64,000 nucleotides of DNA from Escherichia coli (lineage in GTDB: Bacteria > Pseudomonadota > Gammaproteobacteria > Enterobacterales > Enterobacteriaceae): the NCBI RefSeq assembly GCF_003018235.1, contig NZ_CP027437.1. One strand, given 5' to 3'. This document shows, one piece after another, positions 22,853 through 45,785 of the stretch. Within the stretch, counting starts at the first letter, position 1; every line of letters begins with the position of its first letter. Below the pieces are notes generated by a model. The model did no database searches, was not told the DNA's origin, and saw only the letters and a list, made by a program, of their open reading frames with translations. Both the position numbers and the translations under genes were made by a program.

Positions 22853-22874
22853 AGTGTTGCCTTTTTGTTATCAA

Positions 22875-22903
22875 TAAAAAAGGCCCCCCGATTTGGGAGG
22901 CCT
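22875..22903 (-). terminator. pheA attenuator terminator
   Basis: On the minus strand AGGCCTCCCAAATCGGGGGGCCT hairpin followed by TTTTTT, between the pheL stop and pheA start. Confidence 0.6.
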
Positions 22904-22950
22904 TATTGTTCGTCTTCGCATTCTGTTTCACACGACGAAACGCCTCCCAT

Positions 22951-22998
22951 TCAGGGGAAGGTAAAAAAGAATGCGAAGAAAAACGGTGTGTGTTTCAT
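22951..22998 (-). CDS. pheL: pheA leader peptide
   Basis: Encodes MKHTPFFFAFFFTFP* (Phe-rich 15-aa leader). Confidence 0.9.
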   Translation of the reverse strand: MKHTPFFFAFFFTFP

Positions 22999-23163
22999 GT
23001 TTGTTTCCTTAAGTGACTTCAGTACAGTACCCGTACTGTTTTCACGCTGTCAACAAAAAACGCGCCCGAAGGTGCTTTAATGAGGAGTGCCGCTTCTTTA
23101 TGTCTGTGAATTATCAACAACTTACGGGGAAACATAACCGCAAGAAGCGACAAGAAATTACAA

Positions 23164-25127: not shown

Positions 25128-25299
25128 AACGGTATTTATTAGTAAGCAACAAGAAAGTGAATTAAACTCATCGGCAATAACTCGTTATTAAATTGTCATA
25201 CTGTCTGAAACTATTTCCTTCTATTACTGATGTGTGAGGCACGGAAAGGGAATTCCGTTTTTTTAGTGGTGCGATGAGAAAATAACAGAGGTGTCAGAA

Positions 25300-25485
25300 A
25301 TGGAAAAAGAAAAACTGAGACATTTTCGTAAAGAATTAAAAGCTTCTCAGCGTGTAATGACTTTGGCTATTAAGCGATTAGAGGAAGGACGTTATAAGTC
25401 TGCAGTGGAACTCATGCGTGCAGAAGCAGCGGATATATTTAAACTGGCAGATGAATTAAGTGATGTAACAGAACAACAATCCTGA
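25300..25485 (+). CDS. Hypothetical small protein (61 aa)
   Basis: ATG with AGAGGTG SD; helical MEKEKLRHFRKELKASQRVMTLAIKRLEEG... Confidence 0.3.
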   Translation: MEKEKLRHFRKELKASQRVMTLAIKRLEEGRYKSAVELMRAEAADIFKLADELSDVTEQQS

Positions 25486-26281
25486 ACACAGGAAAGTTAT
25501 GGGCTTGTGTGATTCAGAAAGTGTGAGGTTACGTGCAAAATGGCCAGACATGTAAAAAAGAACTTGAATGCAGTGTCGGCATGGTGGTATTTTTCATCTG
25601 CTGCCACAGTGCTGGCAGTCGGGAATACCACCCCGTATGTGTCAACGGCGACATCAGACGCCGCAAGCGTCTTTTTTGTTGTCGTAACCTTATACGCCAT
25701 GAAGCTCCATTTTATGGTGCGGTGTTATCCATTAAGAGCCGTTGCAAGCGCCTCTACCGGAAGGGGCTGGATAACATCCACCACCATGTCAATGGTAGCT
25801 CAGGCGGGGCCGACTTCGGTCGGGCCGGTTTCCGTTGGCACCGGTAGTGGTATCCCCGTCTGGGCTATCGCCAGTGAGCATACCACCTCCTGCGATAGCA
25901 GTATGTTATGTCAACGGAGGCTGCCTGAATGGCTACAATCCCAACCCAAAAGCGCCCAAAATCCGCGCTCCCCCAGCTCAGCAGTGACTGTCGTCGCCGG
26001 ATACACCGTGTGCAGATGGTTACGCTCCATTATTACATTCAGTGTCTCGCTGATAATCCGTGTTCAGTTGATTTTTGTTTTCCGTACTTATTGTCTTACA
26101 TCCACGATGATATTAAGGCTATAGATAATGAGTTAATTTCTCTTGGCCTGTTTGAACAGGCGATGGGAAAGAAAAAACGACGATAGTTTTCATCGTTATT
26201 AATTAACGTTGTCAGGAAGTATTAAACACACCGCTCACGCGGCGGGAATCTTACATCTTAAATATCTGACGAGGTGGAAAC

Positions 26282-26437
26282 ATGAAGCTGTTTTCATTAC
26301 GTAAAAATAAAAAAACGGAAAAAAAGAAACGCACTTATCCGGCAAATAATAACGTCCGTCTGTTACGTTATTACCAGAAATTACAGGAATTAAGTTGTGA
26401 ACCGGATAAAAAGTTCAGCCTGGATGTGTGGATGTAA
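26282..26437 (+). CDS. Hypothetical small basic protein (51 aa)
   Basis: Strong SD GAGGTGG 6 nt upstream; immediately precedes the exonuclease gene; preceded by the conserved 19-nt motif at 26228-26246. Confidence 0.3.
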   Translation: MKLFSLRKNKKTEKKKRTYPANNNVRLLRYYQKLQELSCEPDKKFSLDVWM

Positions 26438-26448
26438 TGGGGGAATAA

Positions 26449-27024
26449 ATGAACGATCTGATGATTGATACTGAAACAACAGGAACATCCCATCATTCAG
26501 GGATTATTTCCTTTGCCGCAGCATTTTTTAATCCAGATACCGGAGATAAAGGTGACCACATTTATCTTCGCCTGGACTGGGTGAGTGCGACACGTAATGG
26601 CGCAGTGATTGATCCGGAGACATTCTGTTTCTGGTTAGAGCAATCGACAGAAGTAAGAATGGAAGCCGTCAGGAAAGACGAAAGTATTTCTGAACGTGAC
26701 GCCACATATGCGCTGATTAATTTTATTGAGCAGCGTGCTGATATCAGACGGGTGCGTGTCTGGGCGAAGTCACCCACGTTTGACTGCTCACTTCTTCGTG
26801 ACATGTGTGATCGGAGTATTGGGTCAAATACCAGCGTAGAAATGTTGTGGCCGTTCTGGAATGAGAGAGATGTCAGGACTGTTGAAGGGCTTGCCGCGCA
26901 TCTTGGCATTCCGTTGCCTTACTCCAGAAAGGAAGTCACTCATCATGCTCTTAATGACGTTATGGGGCAGATAAAAAATGTGGCTACCGTATTTGCAGCA
27001 CTGCGTGGCGTGATGGAGGTGTGA
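26449..27024 (+). CDS. DEDDh-type 3'-5' exonuclease (DnaQ-like)
   Basis: Exo I motif MIDTETTGT at N-terminus; later acidic/His residues (HHALNDV) consistent with Exo III. Confidence 0.65.
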   Translation: MNDLMIDTETTGTSHHSGIISFAAAFFNPDTGDKGDHIYLRLDWVSATRNGAVIDPETFCFWLEQSTEVRMEAVRKDESISERDATYALINFIEQRADIRRVRVWAKSPTFDCSLLRDMCDRSIGSNTSVEMLWPFWNERDVRTVEGLAAHLGIPLPYSRKEVTHHALNDVMGQIKNVATVFAALRGVMEV

Positions 27025-27025
27025 T

Positions 27026-27244
27026 GTGAATAAAGCACAACGTAATGCTGCAGCGGCAGCGAATCGTCACAGGGTCTCGCCGGAACAGGTGCTCATCTGG
27101 TGTGAGCAACTGAAACGCATTGTGGACACAGCAAACCAGAATACGCGGCACAACGAAAAGAGCAGGGCGCTTGAGCCGATTATTGCGTGGATTGAGCAGC
27201 AGAAGAAACAGGCAATGGAAGAAATCAGAAAACGGGGTGAATGA
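27026..27244 (+). CDS. Hypothetical protein (72 aa)
   Basis: GTG start with GGAGGTG SD overlapping exonuclease stop; translationally coupled to the next gene (ATGA overlap). Confidence 0.4.
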   Translation: MNKAQRNAAAAANRHRVSPEQVLIWCEQLKRIVDTANQNTRHNEKSRALEPIIAWIEQQKKQAMEEIRKRGE

Positions 27245-29283
27245 AAATGGCAGAAGAAAAGAATCAGGAATATGCATATGTATTTCCGGTAAAAAACGAA
27301 GCCGCCAGAAAACGCCTGGGTTTTGCGCATGGCTTTTACTGGAAGAGTGATTGCTCACAGGCGAGAGTGTTGCTTCGGGCGAATGTTGCCATGCTGGATG
27401 CGGGTTTTGAACCGGAGGATTTCAAAAAGCCTGTACGTGTTAATTTCCCGGTGGTGAACGAACTCCCAGCGGAAGGTGTTTTTGATACGGAATTTTGCCA
27501 CCTGTATGTACCGGGCGGTGAAGACGGCAAGACGATGGTGTATATCGACGCTGTAAAACAGGAGGCAGACAAGGAAAAAAACAACGTAGCCAGTAACACC
27601 AACGTCAACGGCGAAGATATGACTGAGATTGAGGAGAGCATGCTTCTGCCGATTTCCGCTCAGGAGTTGCCAGTTCGCTGGCTGGCGCAACACGGGAAGG
27701 AGAACCCCGTTACTCACGTTTCCAGAGACGAACTTCAGGCTTTACATGTTGCACGGGCGGAAGAATTACCGGCAGTTACTGCACTGGCGGTTTCCCACAA
27801 AACAGGCCTGCTCGACCCGCTGGAGATCCGCGACCTTCACAAACTGGTGCGTGATACTGACAAAGTTTTCCCTCATCCTGGCAATTCAGACCTGGGGCTC
27901 TTGACTGCTTTTTTTGAAGCATACCTGAATGCTGACTACACCGATCGCGGTCTGCTGACAAAAGAATGGTGCAAAGGAAATCACATATCCCGCCTGGAAC
28001 GTAAAAAAATACAACCAGAGAGCGCAGAACCGCTACGTGCAACCAGGGAAAGACCGCGGCGTAGTGAAAAACCAACCTTCAGAACGATTAATTATGAAAT
28101 CGCCTGTGCTTTATGCCCGGGTGCGGACTGTCATGATTTACGTCCGGTGGTGAATTCAGCGAAGAAACTGATGGCTGACGGGGATGAAAGATGGCGGGCA
28201 TGGTCGACATCTCTTGGCATTACTGAAGGGATTAAAAACTGGGACAGAAAAACGATTTTTGACATGGTCAGTCAGGCTCCGTCACATGTCACAACGGGGT
28301 CAGCAGAGGCGCGCAGGGAGTGGATTGAAAACTTTCTGATTGCACGTGGTGTGCGTGATCCGGAGTGGGCTGAGCCGCTTGTATGCGTTTCCGTACCGGA
28401 ACATGAAGATAATCTGGAAAGAGTTCGCGGTGCAGGAAAACGTCTGCGGAAGCTTGAGAATAGTGATTGCACATTTCAGGCAGACAACGGTTCTGGGGAG
28501 GCTGAGGTGGTTGAAGCGGACGAAAGCAAAGCAACGTCATCTGCTGAAATTCAGGATGCCGATAAATTACTGGCCGCTTACCGTGGTGAATATGTTGAAG
28601 GGATTAGCGACCCGAATGATCCGAAGTGGGTGAAGGGGATCCAGAGACGCGATGATGAGGACCAGGATCAGGCTGAAGCGGAACAAGACGACCAACACGT
28701 GGAACGGAACAGCCCAGATGCGAGACAAAACGAGCCTGATACGGAACAGAATGAGCAAGGAGCACTGCAGGGACCGGAAAAAGTCTGCGACACCTGCGGA
28801 CAGGACGGAGGTGGAAAATGTCCGGATTGCGGTTCTGTCATGGGGGATAGCACATACAGTGCCGTTTATGGCGGGGATCGAGAGGAGTCAGCGTATGTGG
28901 CAGAGCATGGTGCTTTGAATAATCAGAGCAAAGTTACAGTTGGCGAGGTCATGGAGATCATGAAAGCGGTTAAGCCAGCCGTTCATGTTGATGCTGAAGG
29001 GGAAACGGAAGAGATAAACGGTGATCAACTATCACTGCAGACTGAAAATAAGGATGACCGGTCATCACGGAAAGCGTCAGAAGATGTGCCCATGTTTATC
29101 AGTGAGACCGTTCTCCATAAGGAGGATGGTGAGGCAAATATGAATATCTGTGAGTTGGTGAACATGTTGCATCAGCAACAGGAAATGCTGAAAGAAATCC
29201 GCTCAACTCAGGCCCGCTTTATGGGCGCGATTGTAGCCATGCTTTCGGTTATTTCAGGGGGAGAGCAGGTAGGACATGAGTAA
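27241..29283 (+). CDS. Hypothetical 680-aa protein with acidic tract and CxxC-x9-CxxC zinc ribbon
   Basis: Long ORF with balanced composition; CDTCGQDGGGKCPDCGS motif; D/E/Q-rich segment; no NTPase motif seen. Confidence 0.6.
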   Translation: MKMAEEKNQEYAYVFPVKNEAARKRLGFAHGFYWKSDCSQARVLLRANVAMLDAGFEPEDFKKPVRVNFPVVNELPAEGVFDTEFCHLYVPGGEDGKTMVYIDAVKQEADKEKNNVASNTNVNGEDMTEIEESMLLPISAQELPVRWLAQHGKENPVTHVSRDELQALHVARAEELPAVTALAVSHKTGLLDPLEIRDLHKLVRDTDKVFPHPGNSDLGLLTAFFEAYLNADYTDRGLLTKEWCKGNHISRLERKKIQPESAEPLRATRERPRRSEKPTFRTINYEIACALCPGADCHDLRPVVNSAKKLMADGDERWRAWSTSLGITEGIKNWDRKTIFDMVSQAPSHVTTGSAEARREWIENFLIARGVRDPEWAEPLVCVSVPEHEDNLERVRGAGKRLRKLENSDCTFQADNGSGEAEVVEADESKATSSAEIQDADKLLAAYRGEYVEGISDPNDPKWVKGIQRRDDEDQDQAEAEQDDQHVERNSPDARQNEPDTEQNEQGALQGPEKVCDTCGQDGGGKCPDCGSVMGDSTYSAVYGGDREESAYVAEHGALNNQSKVTVGEVMEIMKAVKPAVHVDAEGETEEINGDQLSLQTENKDDRSSRKASEDVPMFISETVLHKEDGEANMNICELVNMLHQQQEMLKEIRSTQARFMGAIVAMLSVISGGEQVGHE

Positions 29284-32401: not shown

Positions 32402-32894
32402 CCACGGATAAAGAGAACTAAATTTCGTCAGAATTAACAGGAAATAACTGGAACGAAAAATACACCGCTTACGCGGCGGGGTTTCTGCAACCTTAAAACA
32501 GGGTAAGAGAAATGGCAGAGATGATGAACAATAAACTCTTCATAACCAGTCTCTTTAAGTTGACTGGCCGGGAGTAACGACCAGTGGCAATACAAAAAAA
32601 CCGCTTGCCAGCGTTTGTCTGGTCGGGTTACATTTCCCGTGCACCTCATAAAACGGGTGCCGGGATTCTCAACCCGCAGAAGAACAGAGCGCATAACCGC
32701 GCCAGCGGTTTTTTTATGCGTGCCGTATCGTCACACCTTTTTCGCACACGAATTATGGCGGGGCGTACGGGGCCGACTTCGGTCGGGCCGGATCCTCTGT
32801 TCTCCGGTGTTGAGAACCCCGTACGTCTCGCCACCCCGAGATTCTCAACTCTGGATGGTGAGTTATGTCTATCACTGAACAGAGGTTACCCCTT

Positions 32895-33125
32895 ATGGCA
32901 AACCGTAAACAACAGCGCGCCCGCACTGAGCGTCGTCACATCCAGACCGAAATCAACCGCAGACTGTACCGGGCTATCACTGTCGCCAGAGTCATGTACT
33001 TCAATATGCTGTGTGATCAGGGATGCCAGATTGCACCTGATTACATTGCCTCCACGTTCAGTTACCTGGCAGACGATCTGCGGGATATGCAACGCCTGGT
33101 TAACGATCAGGCGCATAACCTGTAA
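32895..33125 (+). CDS. Hypothetical small basic protein immediately upstream of repA
   Basis: MANRKQQRARTERRHIQTEINRRLY...; alternative start at 32865. Confidence 0.35.
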   Translation: MANRKQQRARTERRHIQTEINRRLYRAITVARVMYFNMLCDQGCQIAPDYIASTFSYLADDLRDMQRLVNDQAHNL

Positions 33126-33203
33126 CGCACTTTTTCCTGAAATCATGAAACGGCACTCCGCTATCTGGCGGGGTGTCTGGCTGCCCGTTATCCGGGAGGA
33201 CAT

Positions 33204-35126
33204 ATGACCGTGTATTCAGCGGGAGGTCCGCGCATGCCTGAGCCGGAAGAAGAACAGGCATTCACTGAAGAGGTGAACAGCGCCTTTTCCGGGCTGCCTC
33301 GTTTTGTGTCTGTAAAGCTGGGGCGCAGGATCAGCAGCGCATGGCAGACAAAGGGTTTTGCCGGTGCACGGGAAAAATTTGCGCTGATGGTTCAGAAGGA
33401 TTTGCCGTTCATTACCGGGGTGAATAAACGTTATGCCATTAATCCGGATGAATTACCGGGGTGGCTGTTTGGTGGGCTGGCATCTGATCAGGCATACGGT
33501 GCGGTTCATTCCATGACCTGGCGATTTAATGCCATGGTGGATGGTGACGACGGGGATGCGCATTTACTGGCTCAGGATCTGTCCGTGTTTCTTATTGCTG
33601 AAATGCAGCACCTGAGTGTTCTTCTTGCGGATGAAGATGCGGATGCGGCGGCAGATGCCATTTATGCCATGGTTGCCGGGCTTGTTGAGCATTTCCGGAT
33701 GGAGCCACCGGACTGGAAGCGTTTTATTGGCAGAAAGCTGACACTGGAGCAACTGACTGTTGCCATCAGCCGGATGCTGAGTGTTCGCTGGTGGCAGGGA
33801 AAACTCAGGGCATTCTCCCGTCGCTGGCGTGAACATCTGCTTATAGCTATGGGTGTCGTTCGTCGGCAGTCTTCACCGCACTGCAGTTATGAATGGGTGC
33901 AGAGGTGGCTGGCGGGGCGTAAGCACGGTCGAAGGCTGATGGCGGAAACGGACGTTGAGGATGAAGAAACAGGAGAAAGATTTTCACTTCTCGATTTGGT
34001 TGACAGCAGCATTTCAGATGCGGAGAAACGCCGCGCAGAGCTGATGACCAGGGTTAAGGGGCTGGAAGATTTAGCCCGTTTTGAAGGTGTGGCGCAGGAG
34101 CAGGGGTATATCGGGCTTTTTTTCACGATGACCGCGCCATCAAAATATCATGCCTGGCTGGAGACAGGATATCGCAATCGTCGTTATAACGGCGCAAGCC
34201 CGAAAGACACACAAAATTATTTCTCCGGACTCTGGCGTCAGATCAGTGCAACGCTGAGGCGCAGGGGGATCGGGATTTTTGGATTAAGAAGTGCCGAACC
34301 GCATCATGACGGAACGCCGCACTGGCATGGTGTTCTCTATGTGCATCAGGAGCATGCTGCCGCCTTACAGGACATTCTTGAGTATTACGCCAACCGCGAT
34401 GATGACGCGGGAAAAACGCCCATCCGCAAAGCAGGAAGAAAATCCCACCTGGAAATAAAACCGGTTCTTGATGATCTGGGGAGTGCCTCTGCCTATATCG
34501 CCAAGCATATTGGAATGAATCTTGACGGTTGTGCGCCAGGCGGAATGAATCATGAAACGGGCCATACACTGGTGGTCACTGCCCGCCACGCCTCGGCGTG
34601 GGCGTCATTATGGGGGATCAAGCAGTTTCAGTTTATAGGCAGCACACCGGTAAGTGTATGGCGTGAGCTGCGTCGCTTTAACAATCAGGCTCATGCTGAC
34701 CGGATAAGCCCGGCGCTGGGTGAGTTACACCGTGCAGCCAGTGAGGGTGACTGGAAAACCTATACCAGGCTGCAGGGTGGACCGTTTGTGGCACGAAGAG
34801 ATCTGGTCCTTCGCACATGGTATCAGCGTTCGGAGGAGCCGGATGAGTGTGGGCTACACACCAGTGCGATCAAAGGTGTTTATATGCCGGGGCGTGATAC
34901 GCCACCGGTAGTGACGCGTTCACGTAACTGGAGGATCACCCGGAACGTTACAACAGGCGCTCTCAATGTTAACCGGGGGTCTGCTTTAACGCCCTGGACT
35001 TGTGTCAATAACTGCATTTCGGGCAGAAAACGACCAGATGGTCATCCTCCGGATCCAGGTATAAGGATCCCTGTTCAACTGGAACTGAACTTCGGGGAAG
35101 AGAATAAAGGGAAAAGTGAGCAGTAA
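33204..35126 (+). CDS. Rolling-circle replication initiation endonuclease (HUH family; P2 gpA-like)
   Basis: GGGAGGA SD; HUH-type motif GTPHWHGVLYV; 640 aa in the position of gene A relative to int-C-cox. Confidence 0.75.
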   Translation: MTVYSAGGPRMPEPEEEQAFTEEVNSAFSGLPRFVSVKLGRRISSAWQTKGFAGAREKFALMVQKDLPFITGVNKRYAINPDELPGWLFGGLASDQAYGAVHSMTWRFNAMVDGDDGDAHLLAQDLSVFLIAEMQHLSVLLADEDADAAADAIYAMVAGLVEHFRMEPPDWKRFIGRKLTLEQLTVAISRMLSVRWWQGKLRAFSRRWREHLLIAMGVVRRQSSPHCSYEWVQRWLAGRKHGRRLMAETDVEDEETGERFSLLDLVDSSISDAEKRRAELMTRVKGLEDLARFEGVAQEQGYIGLFFTMTAPSKYHAWLETGYRNRRYNGASPKDTQNYFSGLWRQISATLRRRGIGIFGLRSAEPHHDGTPHWHGVLYVHQEHAAALQDILEYYANRDDDAGKTPIRKAGRKSHLEIKPVLDDLGSASAYIAKHIGMNLDGCAPGGMNHETGHTLVVTARHASAWASLWGIKQFQFIGSTPVSVWRELRRFNNQAHADRISPALGELHRAASEGDWKTYTRLQGGPFVARRDLVLRTWYQRSEEPDECGLHTSAIKGVYMPGRDTPPVVTRSRNWRITRNVTTGALNVNRGSALTPWTCVNNCISGRKRPDGHPPDPGIRIPVQLELNFGEENKGKSEQ

Positions 35127-36614: not shown

Positions 36615-37319
36615 ATGACACCGCAACAGATGGTATGGGCGAGAGAGCAGGTTATTTTTGCACTGAATCCACCGGATAAACGTCAGAAGGGGCAACTGGA
36701 GGCATTTGGTGATTTTGCCAGGTCAGACACCAGGCGTTACGGGAGGCAGAGAAACAGGACACTGAACATTGATGGCCGGTGGTATTGTCAGGATGGTGAT
36801 CCGGTACATGCTGCGGCAACAGCCTGTTATGCAATACAACCGGATATGATCACCAGGGAAGCGTTCAGAACGGCACAACTGAGGAGGAGGATTTATTGTC
36901 TGGAGGATTATCATCGGGCCTGGGTGTTATTCAGTTACAGCTTGCAGAAAAAACGAATACACCATCTTCTGGTCAGTGAGTACATCTGGATGAGGATGTT
37001 CGAGCGGTTGCAGGGGAAACGGGTTACGGACAGGATGACAGGAAATCTGATTGAAATAGCGAGGATGGCTGCATGGAATGCTGCAGTGACAGCCGGTGGG
37101 ATTGTTGCAGGTAAGGTTCTGATTGCTCCTTCATGTGCGGCGCAGATTGCAGGTGTAAAACCAAACACATGGAGTCAGCATTACAAGGCTCACTGGTGTT
37201 TTATGCATGAAGTATGCGATGAACTGGATCATGAGGCGCTGGTGACCATTACAGGAATAAAAAATCACCAAAAAAACGGCGAAAAATATAAATTTGCTAA
37301 AGTGAATATTTTAAGGTAG
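36615..37319 (+). CDS. Hypothetical protein (234 aa); a late-gene antiterminator role is possible by position only
   Basis: Last long ORF before a terminator and the late region; no motif recognised with confidence. Confidence 0.4.
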   Translation: MTPQQMVWAREQVIFALNPPDKRQKGQLEAFGDFARSDTRRYGRQRNRTLNIDGRWYCQDGDPVHAAATACYAIQPDMITREAFRTAQLRRRIYCLEDYHRAWVLFSYSLQKKRIHHLLVSEYIWMRMFERLQGKRVTDRMTGNLIEIARMAAWNAAVTAGGIVAGKVLIAPSCAAQIAGVKPNTWSQHYKAHWCFMHEVCDELDHEALVTITGIKNHQKNGEKYKFAKVNILR

Positions 37320-37365
37320 ATTTGAGGCAAATTTGATAGTCTGCCGTATTTGTAAGCAGAGCATA

Positions 37366-37389
37366 AACCCGCATATTGCGGGTTTTTTT
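37366..37389 (+). terminator. Rho-independent terminator
   Basis: ACCCGC-atatt-GCGGGT hairpin followed by TTTTTTT. Confidence 0.55.
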
Positions 37390-37513
37390 ATGCCCGAAAT
37401 TTTCCCTCAGCGCAATAAATACGCTGGTGGTTGTGAGTACCGGTCTTTCAGCTTGCTGGCTTTTTCGACAAGAGTTATTGGTATGCCACGTTAACCGGAC
37501 AGGGGGAAAAGAC

Positions 37514-37711
37514 ATGCTGAAACAGCAGGATATGACAGAAACCGCCAGGGTGGTGTTTAATGAATTAAGCATTACCGAACCGGCGACCGTCGGGGAAATA
37601 GCGCAGAATACCTGCCTTTCACGTGAACGCTGCCAGTTAATACTGACTCAGCTTGTTATGGCGGGTCTGGCTGACTATCAGTTCGGTTGTTACAGACGCC
37701 TTCAGCAATGA
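37514..37711 (+). CDS. Small winged-helix-like protein (paralog 4)
   Basis: TARVVFNELSITEPATVGEIAQNTCLSRERCQLILTQLVMAGL; GGGGG SD; precedes the methyltransferase. Confidence 0.5.
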   Translation: MLKQQDMTETARVVFNELSITEPATVGEIAQNTCLSRERCQLILTQLVMAGLADYQFGCYRRLQQ

Positions 37712-37862
37712 AGGCATTCTTTTATTGTGAAGATGGGCGACTGGTTAGGTGTTACAGCACCCAACCAGTCATTCGCTCATGCTTGAAGGTCACAAGCGAA
37801 CCCAGGCCCACCGCTTTTGCACAAAAGCCCGGAGAGCCTACCGGAGATGAGTTTGTTGATCT

Positions 37863-38930
37863 ATGACGCATGTTGTAAAAATATCAGAAAGTGAACTGGT
37901 CAATGCTGACTGCCTGGAATTTATACACACGTTGCCAGATGACAGTATTGACCTGATCGTTACCGATCCACCGTACTTTAAAGTGAAACCCAATGGCTGG
38001 GATAACCAGTGGAAGGGTGATGAAGATTACCTGAAGTGGCTGGATCAGTGTCTTGCGCAGTTCTGGCGGGTGCTGAAACCTGCCGGAAGTCTTTACCTGT
38101 TCTGTGGCCATCGCCTGGCATCTGACATCGAAATCATGATGCGTGAACGCTTTAATGTGCTGAACCATATTATCTGGGCGAAGCCGTCCGGACGCTGGAA
38201 CGGATGCAACAAGGAAAGCCTGAGGGCGTATTTCCCGGCCACAGAGCGCATTCTGTTCGCGGAACACTATCTGGAGCCGTATCGCCCGAAAGATGATGGT
38301 TATGAGGCGAAGGGCAGGGCACTGAAACAGCATGTGATGGCACCGCTGATTTCTTACTTTCGTGATGCGCGTGCCGCCCTTGGGATAACGGCAAAACAGA
38401 TTGCTGATGTCACAGGAAAGAAAAACATGGTGTCGCACTGGTTCAGTGCCAGTCAGTGGCAGCTGCCGAACGAAAGCGATTATCTGAAATTACAGGCGCT
38501 GTTTGCCCGGGTGGCAGAAGAGAAGCATCAGCGCGGAGAACTGGAAAAGCCACACCACCAGCTGGTGGTAACGTATACCTCACTGAACCGGCAGTATGCG
38601 GAGTTGCTGAGTGAATACAAAAATCTGCGCCGGTATTTTGGCGTGACGGCGCGGGTCCCGTACACCGATGTGTGGACGCACAAGCCGGTCCAGTTTTACC
38701 CGGGTAAACACCCCTGTGAAAAACCGGCGGAGATGCTGCGGCAGATAATTTGTGCGAGCAGCCGTCCTGGTGACATGGTGGCGGATTTCTTTATGGGGTC
38801 GGGCTCAACCATAAAAGCCGCTATGGCGCTGGGGCGTCGTGCAATTGGTGTTGAACTGGAAGAGGAACGTTTTGCGCAGACCGTGAAAGAGATTAGTCAT
38901 ATCCTGACAGGCTCAATTGATGACGGATAA
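37863..38930 (+). CDS. DNA methyltransferase, beta-class N6-adenine/N4-cytosine
   Basis: Motif IV DPPY (IVTDPPYF) precedes motif I FMGSGST; 355 aa. Confidence 0.85.
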   Translation: MTHVVKISESELVNADCLEFIHTLPDDSIDLIVTDPPYFKVKPNGWDNQWKGDEDYLKWLDQCLAQFWRVLKPAGSLYLFCGHRLASDIEIMMRERFNVLNHIIWAKPSGRWNGCNKESLRAYFPATERILFAEHYLEPYRPKDDGYEAKGRALKQHVMAPLISYFRDARAALGITAKQIADVTGKKNMVSHWFSASQWQLPNESDYLKLQALFARVAEEKHQRGELEKPHHQLVVTYTSLNRQYAELLSEYKNLRRYFGVTARVPYTDVWTHKPVQFYPGKHPCEKPAEMLRQIICASSRPGDMVADFFMGSGSTIKAAMALGRRAIGVELEEERFAQTVKEISHILTGSIDDG

Positions 38931-39381
38931 GGATGGATAAAGACATGGTCAGTTCAGGATGCGAAGCAAGTAAACAGATAAGGCTATAAAAAAAACTGAC
39001 AGTAGAAAAATAGCTTTTTCCCAGGTATTCATGAACACAATCTCTTAAAAGCGCCCGCTGATACCAGCGGGCAATACATACTGGCATTGATGTTAAGTTT
39101 ACAGGTTTCATTTATCGTATCGTGCGACACGACGTTGTTATGTTAATAAGTGTGATTTTTGATGTGAAATGTTTGTTGCGTGTTTTTTGATGGGTTTCTC
39201 ATTTTTCAGGCATCATCTCGTCACTGATGTGCAGCACAGCGATGAGGTGCTACTACTTCCACGGAGCGGATTTTGTCTTTTTTGTGGGTGGTAAAAATCT
39301 CCTTATAGCAGGATGTGATAATTATTTATCAGTATAATCTTATGAGATTGACGCGATTTCTCCGGATTTGTTAGAAGATCA

Positions 39382-39456
39382 TGCATGGTGAATCCACCTC
39401 AGCGGTGGGTCATAATGACCGCCTGTTCGCCGGTTCAATCCCTGCGGGGGCCACCA
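39382..39456 (+). pseudogene. tRNA-Ile(CAU)-like remnant: intact-looking anticodon loop/T-arm/acceptor-CCA 3' half joined to a non-tRNA 5' half
   Basis: 3' part ...GTCATAATGACCGCCTGTTCGCCGGTTCAATCCCTGCGGGGGCCACCA resembles an ileX-type tRNA; no complementary 5' acceptor strand, so no cloverleaf. Confidence 0.3.
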
Positions 39457-39457
39457 T

Positions 39458-39534
39458 GCGCCGTTAGCTCAGCTGGACAGAGCAATTGCCTTCTAAGCAA
39501 TCGGTCACTGGTTCGAATCCAGTATGGCGCACCA
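39458..39534 (+). tRNA. tRNA-Arg (anticodon UCU)
   Basis: Manual cloverleaf: acceptor GCGCCGT/ATGGCGC, D-arm GCTC..GAGC, anticodon loop CTTCTAA, T-arm ACTGG-TTCGAAT-CCAGT, CCA end. Confidence 0.85.
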
Positions 39535-39535
39535 T

Positions 39536-39610
39536 GCGGTCATCGTATAATGGCTATTACCTCGGCCTTCCAGGCTGATGATGCGGGTTCGATTCCAGCT
39601 GGCCGCTCCA
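39536..39610 (+). tRNA. tRNA-Gly (anticodon UCC)
   Basis: Manual cloverleaf: acceptor GCGGTCA/TGGCCGC, anticodon loop CTTCCAG, T-loop TTCGATT, CCA end; close to glyT tRNA as I recall it. Confidence 0.8.
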
Positions 39611-39630
39611 TAGAGGATTATGGGGACTGT

Positions 39631-39768
39631 ATGTTGAGTATTTTTCTGCGTTACCTTTCATCGGTAAAAATAAACACACAACAACTATTTATGCTGGCAT
39701 TAGCAATGATAGTTATTGGTTTTCTCGGAACTTGTTTATTTATTTACTATATTTTTGTCGATAATTAA
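39631..39768 (+). CDS. Hypothetical small hydrophobic peptide (45 aa) in moron position
   Basis: MLSIFLRYLSSVKINTQQLFMLALAMIVIGFLGTCLFIYYIFVDN; weak SD; lies between tRNAs and the esterase gene. Confidence 0.25.
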   Translation: MLSIFLRYLSSVKINTQQLFMLALAMIVIGFLGTCLFIYYIFVDN

Positions 39769-40321
39769 TATTTTTAGTATTTAGCCAGAGTGGCCCAAAC
39801 AGAAAATAAAGTTACTGTGAAACAGGGGGGCCTAATAAAAATAATCACCACTAAATTCGGGGCTTTAAAAATGCTAAGAACATCACATTTCATTATGCCG
39901 GGTACTGGAGAATAACATGATGTTTTGTTAAAAATGATTTTGCATGGTGAATCCCCCTGTGCGGCGGGGCATAATGACAGATGTTTGGTTGCGTATTGTA
40001 TAGGCAAGTTGCGGATTCTGTCTGGTCATTGCAGAATTCACCGGGAGGCACCCGGCACCATGCAGATAATTGTTTTGTGGATGATAATACCAGCCCCTCT
40101 CCGGAGGGGCTTTCTTATGGGCGAAAAAAAGCCCGGGGAGCCGGGCAATAGCATGAGATATACGTTTTTATAGACGTACAGATTTTAATCAGAATTTATG
40201 GGGCTGCGCAACTGCGTGGCCTTTTTTGTTTTGTGGGCTAAGGTTTTCCCCTTTGATTCGCCATGTGGCTGAACCTGTAGCCCGCCACTGTTCAGACGCA
40301 ATCCCGGCAAGGGGAGGAATA

Positions 40322-42349
40322 ATGGCATTTAAACACTACGATCTGGTCTCTGCCAGCAGCGGTGATGAACTGCAAAAGAAACTGACAGAAAAAATAAATG
40401 AAGGGTGGCAGCCATACGGTTCGCCGCTTGTTTCGTATGACGATAACGGGATGAAAATTATTCAGGCCATTGCAGCAGAGGGTGATGTCAGGATCCCGGT
40501 TGAAACGCCTGATGATGGTGGTGATTCACCGGTCACAATGACCTCCGGTGCACCTGATTATTATTATGTTGTTGTGCTTGCCGGACAGTCCAACGGCATG
40601 GCCTACGGTGAGGGGCTTCCGTTACCGGACTCTTATGACCGCCCGGACCCGCGCATTAAACAGCTGGCACGCCGCAGTACAGTGACGCCGGGTGGGGACG
40701 CCTGTGCATACAATGATGTGATTCCGGCTGACCATTGTCTGCATGATGTACAGGATATGAGCGGTGTTAATCATCCGAAAGCGGACCTGAATAAGGGGCA
40801 GTATGGCTGTGTCAGTCAGGGGCTGCATATTGCCAAAAAACTGCTGTCGTATATCCCGCAGAATGCAGGGATACTTCTGGTGCCCTGCTGCCGTGGTGGT
40901 TCTGCATTCACCACCGGGGCTGACGGCACATTCAGTGAGGTCACCGGCGCATCCGCTGACGCTGCACGCTGGGGTGCCGGTAAACCCCTGTATCAGGACA
41001 TGGTCAGCCGGACAAAAGCGGCGCTGGCCAAGAACCCGAAAAACAGGCTGCTGGCGGTGGTATGGATGCAGGGCGAGGCAGACCTTGCGTCAGGCAGTCA
41101 GCAGCATAACGGGTTATTCACGGCCATGGTTCAGCAGTTCCGGACTGACCTGTCCTCACTTGCTGCGCAGTGCGTGAGTGGCAATGCTGCCACGGTGCCG
41201 TGGATTTGTGGTGATACCACGTATTACTGGAAGGCCACTTATGGCACACAGTATGAAGCCATTTATGGAGCCTATAAGAATCTGTCCGCACAGAATATTT
41301 TCTTTGTACCGTTCCTGACAGATGAAAACGGCGCAAACACGCCAACGAACCAGCCAGCGGAAGACCCGGATATTGTGGCTGTGGGGTATTACGGTGCGGC
41401 ATCACGAACACAGGCGAACTGGACGACAGCGCAACGTGACAGCCATTTCAGCACCTGGGCGCGTCGCGGCATCATTTCTGACCGCCTTGCGTCAGCTATT
41501 CTGGTGCACGCGGGACGTACGTCAGGTTTCATTACCGGTGAAGTTTCTTCTCCGGACACTGCATCCGGTGACGGTGGTTCGTCCACTGATGCGGGTACGG
41601 ATGCGGGGACCGGCACTTCCGGAACAGGAAGTGATGACGCTACCGGAACGACACCAGCCACCGCTGCCATTATTCTGAGTGCAGACGGAGGGGATGTTTC
41701 GGCACAGGGCTGGACGGTGGAAGGCACCACGGTGACCACCACGGCAAACACGGTGACTTCATCGGGTGAGGCGCTGGCGCAGAATGTGCTGAGTGTTCCG
41801 AAACAGAGCGGGGCAGCATGGAAGCTTGTTCATACCACCACAGATGAGCCAGCGGAACTGCTGAACAATGGCGGTGAGTTCCTGTGTCGTTTCCGTATCA
41901 CGGATACTGCCATTGCTGAGGGGCGTTATGCCTTTGGTCTTTACTGGCTTCCGGACGCACAGAAGATACCAGCCGGTGCGACATTCAATAAAACAGGAAG
42001 CGGGATGTCCCCGTCCATGCTCAACTTCTATGTCCAGACGGATGGCAGCAACATAAACCTGTTATCACACTGCAGTACGAAGAGTGCAGGGAATCTGAAG
42101 ATTGGCTCATTCGGTGCATTTAACAATGAATGGCATACCTTCCGTCTTCGCTACCATGGTGGCAATACGGCAAGAGCAACGGTGACGCTGGACAGTCAGG
42201 TGGTGGGAGATATAACGCTGTTATGTGCGCCGTCAGCGGCCAGTGCCGGTGACACTCTGTCGATGATAAGTATCACATCGGGTGATACATACAGTATTGA
42301 AGTGGAAAGCCTGAGTGTGACGGTGAACGGGGCTGCGGCAGCGGCGTGA
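40322..42349 (+). CDS. Prophage-type sialate O-acetylesterase-like protein (nanS-p-like)
   Basis: GGGGAGG SD; N-terminal MAFKHYDLV... domain then VVLAGQSNGMAYGEG esterase-like segment; located between tRNAs and holin as in Stx-type lambdoid prophages (recollection). Confidence 0.55.
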   Translation: MAFKHYDLVSASSGDELQKKLTEKINEGWQPYGSPLVSYDDNGMKIIQAIAAEGDVRIPVETPDDGGDSPVTMTSGAPDYYYVVVLAGQSNGMAYGEGLPLPDSYDRPDPRIKQLARRSTVTPGGDACAYNDVIPADHCLHDVQDMSGVNHPKADLNKGQYGCVSQGLHIAKKLLSYIPQNAGILLVPCCRGGSAFTTGADGTFSEVTGASADAARWGAGKPLYQDMVSRTKAALAKNPKNRLLAVVWMQGEADLASGSQQHNGLFTAMVQQFRTDLSSLAAQCVSGNAATVPWICGDTTYYWKATYGTQYEAIYGAYKNLSAQNIFFVPFLTDENGANTPTNQPAEDPDIVAVGYYGAASRTQANWTTAQRDSHFSTWARRGIISDRLASAILVHAGRTSGFITGEVSSPDTASGDGGSSTDAGTDAGTGTSGTGSDDATGTTPATAAIILSADGGDVSAQGWTVEGTTVTTTANTVTSSGEALAQNVLSVPKQSGAAWKLVHTTTDEPAELLNNGGEFLCRFRITDTAIAEGRYAFGLYWLPDAQKIPAGATFNKTGSGMSPSMLNFYVQTDGSNINLLSHCSTKSAGNLKIGSFGAFNNEWHTFRLRYHGGNTARATVTLDSQVVGDITLLCAPSAASAGDTLSMISITSGDTYSIEVESLSVTVNGAAAAA

Positions 42350-42689
42350 GGATAAAAAAAGCTGCCGTGGAAAGTGTCCTGAACCGGCAGCAAGGTCAAA
42401 TGATGGATATACCAATAAGGTTTAATAGGCGCAGATATTTCTAACCGGAAGGCACTTAACGGTCAATAATGGAGGTTGGTAATGACATTTATACAACTGA
42501 TACTGCTATATTTCTGCACGGTGGTCTGTGCGTTATATCTGGTGAGCGGTGGCTATAAAGCCATCAGAAATTATGTCCGCCGAAAAATTGATGATGCAGC
42601 GGCTGAGAAGCTCAGCAGAACAACACAGGCTGCCTCATCCCCGAACGAACCAACCCTTCCACAGTAACGTCTCTCAGCGGGAAAATACC

Positions 42690-43025
42690 ATGACAGAACT
42701 GAACAAACTGGTCACTGCAGATGCAGTGAAGGCCGCACTGCGCTCTGAAGAAGTGCGGGGAAAACTGAAGGAAACCATCCGCAAAACGTTTGAGGCACAG
42801 ATTGATGCGGATGTGGAAGCGGTGCTGGATGAGCTTATCGGGCCTGCGGAAGCTCAGCCGGGAGCACCGGCCGGAGAGGATGCGCAGGCGGATGACACGT
42901 CAGCGGAAAACGGTGCGGCACAACCGGAACCTGAATCAGGAACCGAAGCTCAACCGGACGCTGCTTCCGGAACAGGAACGCAACCGGAGGGTACCCCGGA
43001 GCCGGAACCGGCGACGTTGCTGTAA
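42690..43025 (+). CDS. Hypothetical acidic protein
   Basis: [32 protein letters not shown]...; Ala/Glu/Pro-rich tail. Confidence 0.4.
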
Positions 43026-43038
43026 CACCTCATACTCA

Positions 43039-43066
43039 GGCCACCAGCATACAGCGGTGGCCTTTT
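43039..43066 (+). terminator. Rho-independent terminator upstream of lysis genes
   Basis: GGCCACC-N10-GGTGGCC followed by TTTT. Confidence 0.5.
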
Positions 43067-43102
43067 GTTATCGTGCGCTTCCGGAGAACGGGAGACGGGG
43101 AT

Positions 43103-43318
43103 ATGTACCAGATGGAAAAAATCACAACAGGGGTGTCATACACCACGTCAGCGGCGGGAACGGGATACTGGTTACTGCAGCTGCTGGACAGGGTCTCCCC
43201 GTCCCAGTGGGCGGCGATAGGCGTGCTGGGGAGTCTGCTGTTTGGTCTGCTGACGTACCTGACGAACCTGTATTTTAAAATCAGAGAGGACCGTCGTAAG
43301 GCGGCGCGGGGAGAATAA
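43103..43318 (+). CDS. S: Holin, phage-21 S-type (pinholin-like), dual-start motif
   Basis: [71 protein letters not shown]; two TM segments; Met1 and Met4 starts. Confidence 0.85.
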
Positions 43319-43321
43319 ATA

Positions 43322-43953
43322 ATGAACCATGAAGAAATGAATCAGCGCTTCAGTCGCCTGGAAAATGAAATTGCCGGACTGAATAAAAAACTGTCGGCGC
43401 TGGTGACTTCTGAAGATGAAAAAAAAAACGCCGCGATGAACAGGAGGCGGCGTTTTATGATTATTGCATCAAAGTTGCCCGCAGGACCTTTGCGAATTTT
43501 TTGCAGGAAAAGCTATCACCGACCACATCGTCAGAAAAGTACTCCATTACGGTTGAAAGTGCCGGAGAGGAAGGCAATAAACGTTATTTTATTGCGTCTG
43601 CACCGGATAAAGACGAGGAACCCCGTCGGCCTTTCAGGGTTTCCTATGAAGAGGGGGAGTTCGTCGTTTATGAGAACGGAAAACCTGTCCGGGCATCGCA
43701 TCATCACTGCCTGAAAATTATTGATCTCGCTATTGGATGCCTGAAAGACGAAAACACCAGGGTTATGAAACGCATTGGCCGTTGCATGGGGTATCTGCAG
43801 GTGGCGGCAGAGATTGAAGCACTTGACAGTGGTGCTGACAGGGATACAGCGGTGCGGGAGTTCCTTCTTCGTGATTTCAATACCACGCCCTTTAAAAAAG
43901 TGCCTTATGACTGGATCCAGCCGGGCCTGACTTATCTCAAAGGGCGTATATGA
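43322..43953 (+). CDS. Hypothetical protein interrupted by a frameshift at an A10 tract (43419-43428)
   Basis: Frame 2 (43322-) and frame 1 (-43953) both look coding and would fuse into one ~210-aa protein with one extra A; starts 4 nt after the holin stop. Confidence 0.4.
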
Positions 43954-43995
43954 GTTGGCATGTTATCTGTGGCCGATAAATCCTGATAAATATCC

Positions 43996-44529
43996 ATGAA
44001 CGCAAAAATCAGATACGGCCTGTCGGCTGCCGTTCTGGCGCTGATTGCCGCAGGGGCTTCTGCGCCAGAAATCCTTGACCAGTTTCTGAATGAAAAAGAA
44101 GGTAATCACACCACGGCATACCGTGATGGTGCGGGTATCTGGACCATCTGCCGTGGTGCCATTCTGGTGGACGGTAAGCCTGTTGTTCCCGGCATGAAGT
44201 TGTCGAGGGAAAAATGCGACCAGGTTAACGCCATCGAACGTGACAGGGCGCTGGCATGGGTGGAGAAAAACATCAAAGTGCCGCTGACCGAACCGCAGAA
44301 AGCGGGGATTGCGTCATTCTGCCCGTACAACATCGGTCCTTCGAAATGCTTCACCTCAACGTTTTACCGGAGACTGAACGCCGGAGACCGTAAGGGGGCA
44401 TGTGCTGAAATCCGTCGGTGGATATATGACGGTGGCAGGGACTGCCGTATCCGCTCAAACAACTGCTACGGTCAGGTATCCCGGCGTGACCAGGAGAGTG
44501 CGCTGGCGTGCTGGGGTATCGACAGATAA
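43996..44529 (+). CDS. R: SAR endolysin (T4-lysozyme-like muramidase)
   Basis: Gly/Ala-rich N-terminal SAR segment GLSAAVLALIAAGASA; catalytic E-x8-D-x5-T (EGNHTTAYRDGAGIWT). Confidence 0.9.
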   Translation: MNAKIRYGLSAAVLALIAAGASAPEILDQFLNEKEGNHTTAYRDGAGIWTICRGAILVDGKPVVPGMKLSREKCDQVNAIERDRALAWVEKNIKVPLTEPQKAGIASFCPYNIGPSKCFTSTFYRRLNAGDRKGACAEIRRWIYDGGRDCRIRSNNCYGQVSRRDQESALACWGIDR

Positions 44530-44864
44530 GCAGAATATTTTGCTGAAAAATGAGATTTTCCCACGCGTCCGGAAAACACAAAATCCTTCATAAAGGTATT
44601 TCAGTAGTGAATAAAAGTAAAAACCCCGATTGCGCTAACAGTCGGGGTTTTGTGTTTCTGACCTTGAATAAGGCAAGGGAGAAATTATCAGGTAGGGAGG
44701 TGCTTTCCCTGTGAGGAAGTATAAAAGATTCTTTCTGAGGTTGTCCATTATGAAAGGCATTGAAGTGGAGACGCCAGCCAGTCTGGATTTAACAAGAGCA
44801 GCAGCCTTTGCCATTCGTATTGTGGCAATTGCCATACTGGTCTGGGCAATCCGCTGGTGGTGAT

Positions 44865-45332
44865 ATGAACCGTGTTCTGTATGTGTTGATTATTGTCCTG
44901 CTGGTGGCCTGCGGTGCGCTGTGGCTGGCAACAGACCATTACCGCGATAATGCCATCACTTACAAAGCGCAGCGCGATAAAAAAGTCAGAGAACTGAAGC
45001 TGGCTGACGCCACCATTACTGACATGCAGCAGCGCCAGCGTGATGTTGCTGCACTCGATGCAAAATACACAAAGGAGTTAGCCGATGCGAGAGCTGAAAA
45101 TGAAACTCTGCGCGCTGATGTTGCTGCTGGTCGTAAGCGCCTGCGTGTCAACGCCACCTGTGTGTCCGCCACAGACAAAGCCACCGGCACCGCCCGCGTG
45201 GGTAATGCTGCCCGCCCCAGACTGGCAGACGCCGCTCAACGGTATTATTTCACCCTCAGAGAGCGGCTGATGACGATGCAGAAGCAACTGGAAGGGGCAC
45301 AGGAATATATCAGGACGCAATGCGTGAAATAG
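44865..45332 (+). CDS. Rz: i-spanin Rz
   Basis: N-terminal TM then coiled coil; close to lambda Rz as I recall ([16 protein letters not shown]..). Confidence 0.85.
45085..45270 (+). CDS. Rz1: o-spanin Rz1 lipoprotein, embedded in Rz in another frame
   Basis: AAGGAG SD; lipobox LLLVVSAC; Pro-rich; ends ...[10 protein letters not shown] like lambda Rz1. Confidence 0.85.
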
Positions 45333-45764
45333 GTTTTCTCAGTGCGTTGTATCGTCGCCGTATTCCCGCATTAACAGAGACCGCAGCCCGACGGGGAGAC
45401 TCCTCTGCGCGAGTGTGCGGGAATAATCAGAAACGATGCACACCGGGTTTTGCCGCGTAAACAGGACGCGGACTGCACCCACATGGTCGCCTGTCCGGTG
45501 CGATGGTGGAAGAAACCGGAACACTCAGTACTCACCTGGAATAAAAAAAGCCGCAGGTGGTATGCGGCATAAAATGGCACGAATTAGTGGATGTTTCTTT
45601 TTTCGTTTGTATTTTTATCTGATTTCCTGAGGTGTAATCAATTCGAAAAATACGTGAGAACAGAGCGTGTATTTTCGACCTTTTTTTGCTGGAAGAAACC
45701 TGATGTAAACACAATTGATAATTATTATCATTTGTGGGGTCCTCCTGGCGGGGTTGGCCTGTCC

Positions 45765-45785
45765 ACGGGGCGGGTCGGCGCGGAA
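45765..45785. other. Putative cosN (cohesive-end site)
   Basis: ACGGGGCGGGTCGGCGCGG resembles lambda cosN ACGGGGCGGCGACCTCGCGG; about 200 bp upstream of the small terminase start, as in lambda. Confidence 0.35.

Follow-up and report, generated by a model that had tools for sequence, protein, structure and literature searches.

A probable P4- and P1-type RNA immunity cassette in the early operon of an Escherichia coli prophage

RNAs of the C4/CI type have been described since the early 1990s. In phage P1, two segments of the RNA, a' and b', are each matched by complementary sequence both upstream and downstream, and the downstream copy lies over the ribosome-binding site of the first gene of the antirepressor operon; these details reportedly go back to the work of Citron and Schuster in 1990 and of Riedel and co-workers in 1993. 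The immI region of P1 and P7 is the type member of the Rfam C4 family, whose clan (CL00128) also includes the c4-a1b1 target family. In the satellite P4, a long reading frame named eta begins upstream of the constitutive promoter. In the summary of Forti et al. (1999) given in PMC10111431, eta is translated only when transcription comes from the late promoter upstream, and termination is prevented by this translation. A Rho-dependent terminator of P4, timm, has been placed at 8365-8209 (PMC3177188). A related arrangement has been described in the Salmonella prophage Gifsy-1, where IsrK is a structural homologue of P4 SeqA and a processed RNA lies downstream of IsrK (PMC4825925). There, the leader RNA was reported to activate, and not to repress, translation of the downstream gene in trans: IsrK supplied in trans raised anrP translation more than 100-fold, and a helix between IsrK nt 28-31 and 'orf45' nt 159-162 was shown genetically. 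This helix can be read as the seqA:seqB pairing.

Here we describe a 796-bp region of the E. coli contig NZ_CP027437.1 that carries the same elements (Table 1). The window, that is, the whole stretch of 64,000 nucleotides analysed, is E. coli-like chromosome (tmRNA at 4756-5118, pheA leader at 22874-22999) into which a prophage is inserted. The prophage begins beside pheL with genes for an integrase, an HTH repressor and a Cox-family protein, ordered as in P2. The region under study includes ORF85, an 85-codon gene, and is followed by a 3'-5' exonuclease gene and a RecE-like gene and, further downstream, by a gpA-type replication gene, an HNH protein and a Q-like antiterminator; the late genes are about 87% identical to those of Stx-converting phages. 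An earlier note on this DNA had called the region ORF-poor, which agrees with the view of the annotation pipeline, as the RefSeq copy in CP076709 (99.4% identity) is blank between the flanking genes. With a probability of about 0.85, we consider the region to be a complete RNA-immunity cassette of the P4 (CI RNA) and P1-P7 (C4 RNA) type, placed in the early operon of the prophage. The element is an ordinary member of a family already in Rfam and does not constitute a new kind of system.

Table 1. Features of the cassette, of the second cassette of the same prophage and of a repeated motif (positions in the window)
Feature	Position	Strand	Evidence or remarks
Long frame, 194 codons, counterpart of P4 eta	25540-26124	+	ORF list, Pfam Phage_ASH, PHROG 6928, frame conservation
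Predicted constitutive promoter, counterpart of P4 PLE, inside the long frame	25564-25593	+	Gap-free by-eye alignment with P4
IsrK / P4 SeqA-type leader RNA, three hairpins and intrinsic terminator	25600-25677	+	Rfam isrK, fold, collinearity with P4
Upstream target a1 / seqA, AUACCAC	25625-25631	+	Complementary to GUGGUAU; loop of second leader hairpin
Upstream target b1, CAACGG	25643-25648	+	In the leader; complementary to the C4 hairpin-2 loop
Leader intrinsic terminator, AGACGCCGCAAGCGUCU then U run	25656-25677	+	Terminator scan and fold; aligns with P4 hairpin and T run
C4 / CI-type antisense RNA gene	25788-25875	+	Rfam RF01695, fold, P4 homology, covariation
Recognition loop b', UUUCCGUUGGCA, hairpin 2	25829-25840	+	Duplex energy and covariation
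Recognition segment a' / seqB, GUGGUAU	25847-25853	+	Between hairpin 2 and outer stem
Downstream target a2 / seqC, AUACCAC	25880-25886	+	Loop of hairpin 25864-25871 / 25892-25899 (inverted repeat I4)
Downstream target b2, UGUCAACGGAGG	25909-25920	+	Includes the GGAGG ribosome-binding site of ORF85
ORF85, 85 codons, 'Derepression' family, first gene behind the putative RNA gate	25929-26186	+	Pfam, dN/dS, ribosome-binding site
Conserved motif ACACCGCUCACGCGGCGGG	26228-26246	+	36 nt before the next small ORF (26282); second copy at 32462-32480
Second, heterospecific cassette	32584-33207	+	Rfam, PHROG, cognate sites
Second cassette, long frame of 207 codons		+	
Second cassette, isrK leader	32641-32715	+	
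Second cassette, C4 RNA	32751-32838	+	
Second cassette, nested 76-codon gene	32895-33125	+	

The antisense RNA and its leader

The earlier note had guessed at a phage regulatory RNA, and the covariance-model search bore this out: in an Rfam scan of the whole window, the C4 antisense RNA model matched with 74.2 bits against a gathering score of 45, covering model positions 1-87 of 87. The same C4 and isrK models match the P4 record (74.9 and 60.8 bits), from which it follows that the Rfam C4 family corresponds to the CI RNA of P4 and isrK to its seqA leader, a correspondence likewise given in PMC10111431. At the nucleotide level, a distant-mode BLAST search aligned 25788-25947 with P4 8347-8507 at 76.5% identity over 160 nt (E 4e-23), the P4 segment being deposited as a 'cI/ash 137-aa ORF'. 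The longer segment 25560-25960 aligns with P4 end to end, with promoter hexamers, leader hairpins, terminator, RNA, seqC hairpin, ribosome-binding site and start codon in collinear order. Only the distant mode was able to find these relatives, namely P4 and the C4 regions of Stx phages; megablast of 25200-26450 against the phage collection gave no match, and no P1 or P7 record stood among the distant-search matches listed.

The RNA consists of a 17-bp outer stem around two hairpins. Its predicted fold (-46.4 kcal/mol, z = -4.4, with none of 200 shuffled sequences folding as well) agrees with the Rfam structure, and the G+C-rich hairpin CCGAC-UUCG-GUCGG at 25810-25823 forms part of it; stem-loops are thus present, as the earlier note had said. 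Relatives were collected by searching viral contigs for the pattern of the invariant C4 core, which returned at least 120 loci; two of these (L014 and L024) were chance matches in unrelated sequence and were excluded from the alignment. Across the 78 distinct C4 sequences among the matches listed, standard pairs occupied 99.3% of the cells compared with 90.0% in shuffles, and none of 500 shuffles reached the observed values. When the stem partners were slid against each other as a control, pairing fell to 29-52%. Two-sided, compensatory changes were present at 11 pairs in this set of listed relatives; since the search pattern itself prescribed hairpin 2 and parts of hairpin 1, the informative covariation is that of the outer stem and of two pairs in hairpin 1. 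By analogy with the C4 and CI RNAs, which RNase P processes, the mature RNA should extend from about 25793 to 25873. An outer stem with CCA behind it (in the region of 25872-25874) would be compatible with a substrate of RNase P, and by analogy with P4 and P1 the RNA would be released from a longer transcript and repress the downstream operon.

Upstream of the RNA lies a sequence that aligns with the P4 promoter PLE. It consists of a -35 element TTGAAT (25564-25569), an 18-nt spacer and an extended -10 element TGgTATTTT (25585-25593), and transcription is predicted to start near 25600, where the Rfam isrK model begins. A consensus promoter scan did not report this promoter, which has 8 of 12 consensus matches and falls under the cut-off, so that its placement rests on the P4 alignment, in which the hexamers proposed to form PLE are our own assignment and not the output of a tool. 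Just 3' of the predicted promoter, a seqA hairpin is followed by an intrinsic terminator, as in isrK/SeqA leaders. The leader scored 49.0 bits with Rfam isrK (RF01394), 1 bit below the gathering score of 50, and does not appear in the gathering-threshold scan; a sensitive scan of 1.4 kb gave the match at 25600-25677 with an E value of 3.6e-9. The second copy of the module in this prophage scores 65.4 bits with the same model. The leader folds with -30.0 kcal/mol (z = -3.0). Terminator-like sites numbered 6, compared with 1.4 expected. A terminator-like hairpin at 25241-25258 may limit read-through from the upstream promoter.

The description of the region as GC-rich holds for its core (55.9% in 25600-25930 and 64.8% in 25788-25875) and fails for the whole 796 bp, whose 48.5% lies under the window mean of 51.6%.

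Recognition segments and their targets

Two variable single-stranded segments characterise the C4 RNA, the junction (AGUGGUAU in this element) and the loop of hairpin 2. Each has one complementary site in the leader and another ahead of ORF85, an arrangement with the same logic as in P1 (a1 b1 / a' b' / a2 b2) and in P4 (seqA / seqB / seqC). The loop b' pairs with the downstream target b2 at 12 of 12 positions, three of them G-U, and the duplex is calculated at -21.3 kcal/mol for the cognate pair compared with -9.7 kcal/mol with the second module of the prophage; cross-module duplexes are weaker than cognate ones.

The relatives show that these complementarities are maintained together. With a complement defined as at least 7 nt, and among the 114 unique loci in the pattern-scan matches listed, the junction was found to have a downstream complement in 114 and an upstream complement in 110, compared with 1.1 and 6.5 when RNAs were swapped between loci. 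The loop had a downstream complement in 109 and an upstream one in 103 of these 114 listed loci (4.8 and 9.3 with swapped RNAs). All four complements occurred together in 97 of the 114 loci listed, compared with 0.0 when the RNAs were taken from loci of other specificity. The same 114 loci contain at least 18 junction types and at least 43 loop types in at least 56 combinations. In the relative E. coli CP133871, which is 86% identical, b', b1 and b2 have changed together, with a', a1 and a2 unchanged.

Two further candidate elements were considered and rejected. A copy of seqB in the sense orientation lies at 25584-25590, within the -10 region; being complementary to seqA, it might have served as a general built-in decoy in transcripts started upstream, and only 11 of 112 loci have one. 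A second CCGTTG at 25739-25744 was considered as a functional b'-like element; it is unchanged in CP133871 although b1 changed there.

These data bear on the direction of the regulation. With its match to the isrK model, a terminator of its own and an IsrK-like fold, the short terminated leader (25600-25677) could be imagined to act in trans on the read-through transcript as in Gifsy-1, displacing an inhibitory intramolecular seqA:seqB helix and switching on translation of the downstream frame and gene; the genetic evidence for the helix, the anrP effect and the homology of IsrK to P4 SeqA stated by its authors all speak in favour of this. We nevertheless regard it as unlikely, given that the sequence is much nearer to P4, with which it is collinear and in which the processed CI RNA is the repressor, and given that in 109-114 of the 114 loci listed the RNA co-varies with the a2/b2 sites, which lie over the ribosome-binding site, as a repressor-target relationship predicts. 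Activation of the Gifsy-1 type and the repressor model are not mutually exclusive, and because the Gifsy-1 leader activates, the sign of the regulation exerted by the leader itself is uncertain here.

Reading frames across the cassette

The two ORFs listed in the earlier note, 25533-25847 (104 aa, GTG start) and 25540-26124 (194 aa, ATG start), have exactly these coordinates and overlap each other, and 45.9% of the 194-aa product is made up of Ser, Ala, Thr and Val, in line with the bias ascribed to it. The absence of a Shine-Dalgarno sequence was too strong a claim for the longer one, which has GAGG 11 nt upstream, a weak site. The statement that these were the only long ORFs overlooked an 85-codon ORF (ORF85), which has a strong GGAGG 8 nt 5' of its ATG, a Pfam match and the signature of purifying selection.

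ORF85 matches the Derepression protein family (PF25738, E 4.1e-8, residues 15-82 on model positions 18-86 of 95), and its C-terminus is 35% identical to residues 56-89 of P4 epsilon (pairwise E 6e-6). The dN/dS values against two relatives are 0.26 and 0.36, and ORF85 is thus a protein-coding gene under constraint; its homologue in CP133871 is named 'derepression protein' by PGAP. No match to ORF85 was obtained among phages by tblastn, among NCBIfam models even at E 10 or among PHROG families, and the 'ash' and 'derepression' proteins of the relatives were likewise without an NCBIfam match at E 10. In the alignment with P4, the ATG of ORF85 coincides with an ATG from which a 65-codon frame starts. 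This P4 frame is taken to be kil, and ORF85 to occupy the kil position. As the prophage carries a P2-like pair of HTH repressor and Cox protein, it is plausible that ORF85 binds and inactivates a P2-type C repressor.

The picture is different for the 194-codon frame. It starts 60 nt before the predicted internal transcription start, crosses promoter, leader, terminator, C4 RNA and targets, and then runs over ORF85 out of frame. Over a span reaching at least 200 nt upstream and at least 120 nt downstream of the C4 core, this frame, which contains a conserved AUG at the 5' end of C4, was stop-free in 98 of 112 of the loci listed, compared with 3 and 2 for the other two frames. After clustering, it remained open in 29-34 of 36-37 sequence clusters: 29 of 37 for leader and spacer (5 and 7 for the other frames) and 33 of 37 for the downstream part (0 and 14). 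In relatives with a 360-bp insertion the frame is open throughout the insertion. Of 26 loci of the module-2 type, 24 have the end of the frame in an ATGA overlap with the gene that follows, and this gene is not the same in all loci. The amino acid sequence shows the opposite behaviour. The dN/dS values are 1.09 and 1.08, and substitutions are spread over the three codon positions as 18/17/15 and 17/12/12, with no codon periodicity. Flat codon positions together with a dN/dS of about 1.1 indicate that no protein sequence is conserved in this frame. The idea that the long frames are simply non-coding DNA is therefore right as far as the neutral evolution of the 194-aa frame goes, and it does not account for the absence of stops in that frame or for ORF85, which is a real gene.

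Existing annotation treats the same frame as a protein gene. It matches Pfam Phage_ASH (E 4.2e-4) and PHROG 6928, 'transcriptional repressor' (E 4e-18), and PGAP calls its counterparts in relatives 'ash family protein' or, in one relative with a pseudogene call, 'Icd-like'. All these labels are built on translations of the long frame. Together with the openness of the frame in most relatives, they would favour a plain protein gene, a 194-aa Ash, 'Icd-like' or 'transcriptional repressor' product, with the RNA matches as side effects. This explanation is very improbable. The dN/dS values and the even distribution over codon positions led us to reject a protein-only gene. In the stems, substitutions compensate each other at the level of the RNA; the co-variation between the variable segments and remote complementary sites has no explanation in any constraint on a protein; and a 1-nt indel relative to P4 alters the frame with respect to the downstream gene. 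Moreover, neither frame matched the P1 Icd/Icd-like family or any other NCBIfam model even at E 10. The P4 immunity factor itself is said to have been recognised as an RNA by Forti and co-workers in 1995, a result that reportedly superseded the '137-aa cI/ash' ORF behind those annotations.

P4 timm falls within the 65-codon frame taken to be kil; the equivalent position here is the initial part of ORF85, where the long frame has not yet reached its stop. In-frame nesting of the kil type was not found: ORF85 begins 123 nt after the C4 core in frame 0, the long ORF is in frame 1, and the two are out of frame because of the 1-nt indel relative to P4. By analogy with eta, the long frame is probably translated just to override termination. 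As the frame is kept open and is the counterpart of a translated P4 frame, its detection by Ribo-seq or proteomics, which the earlier note had held to speak against a regulatory RNA, would leave the RNA function unrefuted.

A third explanation, that the locus is an inactive relic within a defective prophage, draws on the rarity of this early region, present in just 6 of 5426 complete E. coli genomes, on the RecE-like genes of relatives, which are annotated as pseudogenes, and on relatives that carry two tandem modules where the window has one, a difference that shows that rearrangement has occurred. It is even harder to credit than the protein gene: the terminator, the ribosome-binding site, the two reading frames and each of the four complementarities are intact, close relatives show coordinated changes at three sites, and ORF85 is under purifying selection.

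Proposed working of the cassette and comparison with known systems

For an active RNA-immunity cassette, the direction of regulation, together with processing, termination and bypass by translation, can be modelled on P4, P1 and Gifsy-1. A weak constitutive promoter would start the transcript near 25600, and most transcripts would stop at the leader terminator. From those that read through, the tRNA-like structure at 25788-25875 would be excised to give a stable antisense RNA about 80 nt long. Its GUGGUAU segment and its hairpin-2 loop would pair with a1 and b1 in the leader, and the same two segments could pair with a2 and b2 ahead of ORF85. The downstream pairing covers the ribosome-binding site, so ORF85 would remain untranslated; the untranslated transcript would then terminate early, and ORF85, which may be an epsilon-like derepression or antirepressor protein, would be held off together with the 3'-5' exonuclease and the RecE-like gene. 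Transcripts from the cox-side early promoter further upstream would carry the start of the 194-codon frame. Ribosomes on this frame would traverse leader, RNA gene and targets, and transcripts started upstream would thereby escape the RNA block.

The same prophage carries a second cassette of different specificity. Its C4 RNA scores 77 bits, its junction GUUGAGAA and its loop AUCCUCUGUUCU each have their own cognate sites, and PHROG searches gave matches to PHROG 3688 (E 9e-32) and, for a 640-aa protein, to PHROG 91. The ATGA at 33204-33207 contains both the stop of its long frame and the start of the gpA-like replication gene. The motif ACACCGCUCACGCGGCGGG, conserved also in relatives, occurs twice in the window compared with 0.04 matches expected. 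On a broader reading, the long frames would be a general device. In over 100 loci of prophages and satellites, an open, neutrally evolving frame passes through the promoter, the leader with its terminator and the gene of the antisense RNA, and in this prophage it overlaps real genes out of frame; translation of the frame, and not its product, would let transcripts from the main lytic promoter override RNA immunity. This prophage would then contain two gates of different specificity in series, one before the epsilon-like antirepressor and the recombination genes and the other before the replication initiator. We put this reading forward tentatively, with a confidence a little short of even.

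The main value of these results concerns annotation. RefSeq leaves the same DNA blank in one copy, names it 'ash family protein' elsewhere and calls it an 'Icd-like' pseudogene in one relative; contrary to these annotations, the locus appears to be an RNA immunity cassette of defined specificity. As such, it predicts which related phages and satellites the prophage should exclude, and it predicts that an RNA, besides the protein repressor, holds off the epsilon-like antirepressor and the early recombination genes. The comparative data (18 x 43 recognition types in 56 combinations among the loci listed, all accompanied by matching targets, together with the stop-free yet neutrally evolving frame) provide population-scale support for the P4/P1 mechanism. 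A conserved, neutrally evolving frame that may be translated through is a modestly interesting generalisation, and long low-complexity frames have received little attention as a device so far.

Among the known systems, the P4 immunity region (PLE, seqA leader, cI, seqC, kil/eta, epsilon) is the closest relative. The order of elements is collinear, a long frame runs from upstream of the internal promoter through the RNA gene, and the gene of an epsilon-family protein follows closely. The recognition segments read GUGGUAU and UUUCCGUUGGCA in the prophage but UUCUCAC and UAUCCUGUGAAG in P4, and with this difference the two elements should be heteroimmune. The first gene after seqC is here an epsilon-like 85-aa gene in another frame, whereas in P4 it is the in-frame nested Kil, and the host is a full-size prophage with two cassettes instead of an 11-kb satellite. 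With the immI region of P1/P7 (a1 b1, c4, a2 b2, icd, ant), the cassette shares the logic of two recognition elements with doubled targets; protein family searches found no Icd or Ant homologue here, and the downstream gene, unlike that of P1/P7, is of the epsilon/Derepression family. The isrK - STnc1160/orf45 - anrP region of Salmonella Gifsy-1 shares both Rfam elements and their order; its leader sRNA ends at a terminator of its own, and a read-through transcript carries the second RNA and an antirepressor-type gene. The downstream genes differ, and the frame over the C4-like region, which in Gifsy-1 is the short 'orf45', extends here over 194 codons from upstream of the promoter.

A second cassette and a repeated motif

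The prophage carries a second complete RNA immunity cassette (module 2), with recognition sequences distinct from the module-1 set. An ATGA overlap joins the end of its 207-codon long frame to the start of the gpA-like replication gene. The two parts of the window also share an exact 19-nt motif, ACACCGCT(C/T)ACGCGGCGGG, which is present twice (26228-26246 and 32462-32480; 0.04 expected), contains a small hairpin of the form CCGC-NNNN-GCGG and lies in both cases a few tens of nucleotides upstream of a short ORF.

Features of module 2, of the motif-associated ORFs and of the late region (window coordinates)
Feature	Position	Remark
Short ORF after first motif copy	26282-26437	
Short ORF after second motif copy	32513	21 codons
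Second complete cassette	32584-33207	isrK leader, C4 and nested gene
isrK leader RNA of module 2	32641-32715	
C4 antisense RNA of module 2	32751-32838	
Nested gene of module 2	32895-33125	76 codons; PHROG 3688
gpA-like replication gene	starts at 33204	640 aa
Q-like gene and methylase	within 37300-47000	late region
Two tRNAs	39458-39607	
STnc100	39912-40122	
nanS/yjhS-like esterase	40226-42349	

The surrounding prophage and its relatives

The late region (37300-47000) is ~87% identical to Stx2a-converting phages, and the gap of ~620 bp that separates the tRNAs from the esterase is too short for stxAB. A 680-aa ORF (27241-29283) matches the exodeoxyribonuclease VIII (RecE) model only at positions 4-422 of 877, with a score far under the curated cut-off, and its counterpart in RefSeq relatives is annotated as a partial RecE pseudogene. 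In the related locus L125 (CP054363, 1-2010), a prophage with the same cassette adjoins cpxP, not pheL, and has a different integrase; therefore, the early-region module passes from one integration module to another.

L125 (3549-3995) and L003 (CP051727, 3585-4031), both close relatives, contain two tandem leader and C4 modules before the homologue of ORF85, the Derepression-family gene, against one in the window. Their junction types are AGUGGUAU and UACGCCAA. Repeated 'GGAGGCTGCC..ATGGCTACAATCC' segments border the 360-bp difference from the window, and the long frame stays open across it; the second tandem module is named 'ash family protein' by PGAP. In the RefSeq records of L001, L002, L003 and L125, the same pipeline treated the same DNA in four ways: it left it unannotated, called it an 'Icd-like' pseudogene, named it 'ash family protein', or labelled ORF85 as 'derepression protein' or 'hypothetical protein'. 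The C4 RNA is entered in none of these four records.

Sequence details of module 1

Downstream of the cox-family gene and ahead of the 64-codon ORF, a hairpin with a T run behind it (25241-25258) resembles a terminator; it could restrict how much transcription from the early promoter reaches the module-1 cassette. In the predicted promoter of module 1, the -10 region includes a sense copy (GTGGTAT, 25584-25590) of seqB, the C4 recognition segment; this copy is complementary to the leader target seqA (25625-25631). Because only 11 of the 112 loci listed have such a copy, it is probably lineage-specific or due to chance. Another hairpin (25864-25871/25892-25899) takes its 5′ strand from the C4 outer stem, whose 3′ arm it uses, and holds the downstream target seqC in its loop; before the transcript is processed, this hairpin and the C4 fold therefore compete with each other. 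A seqC hairpin sharing the 3′ arm of the C4 stem is likewise visible in P4.
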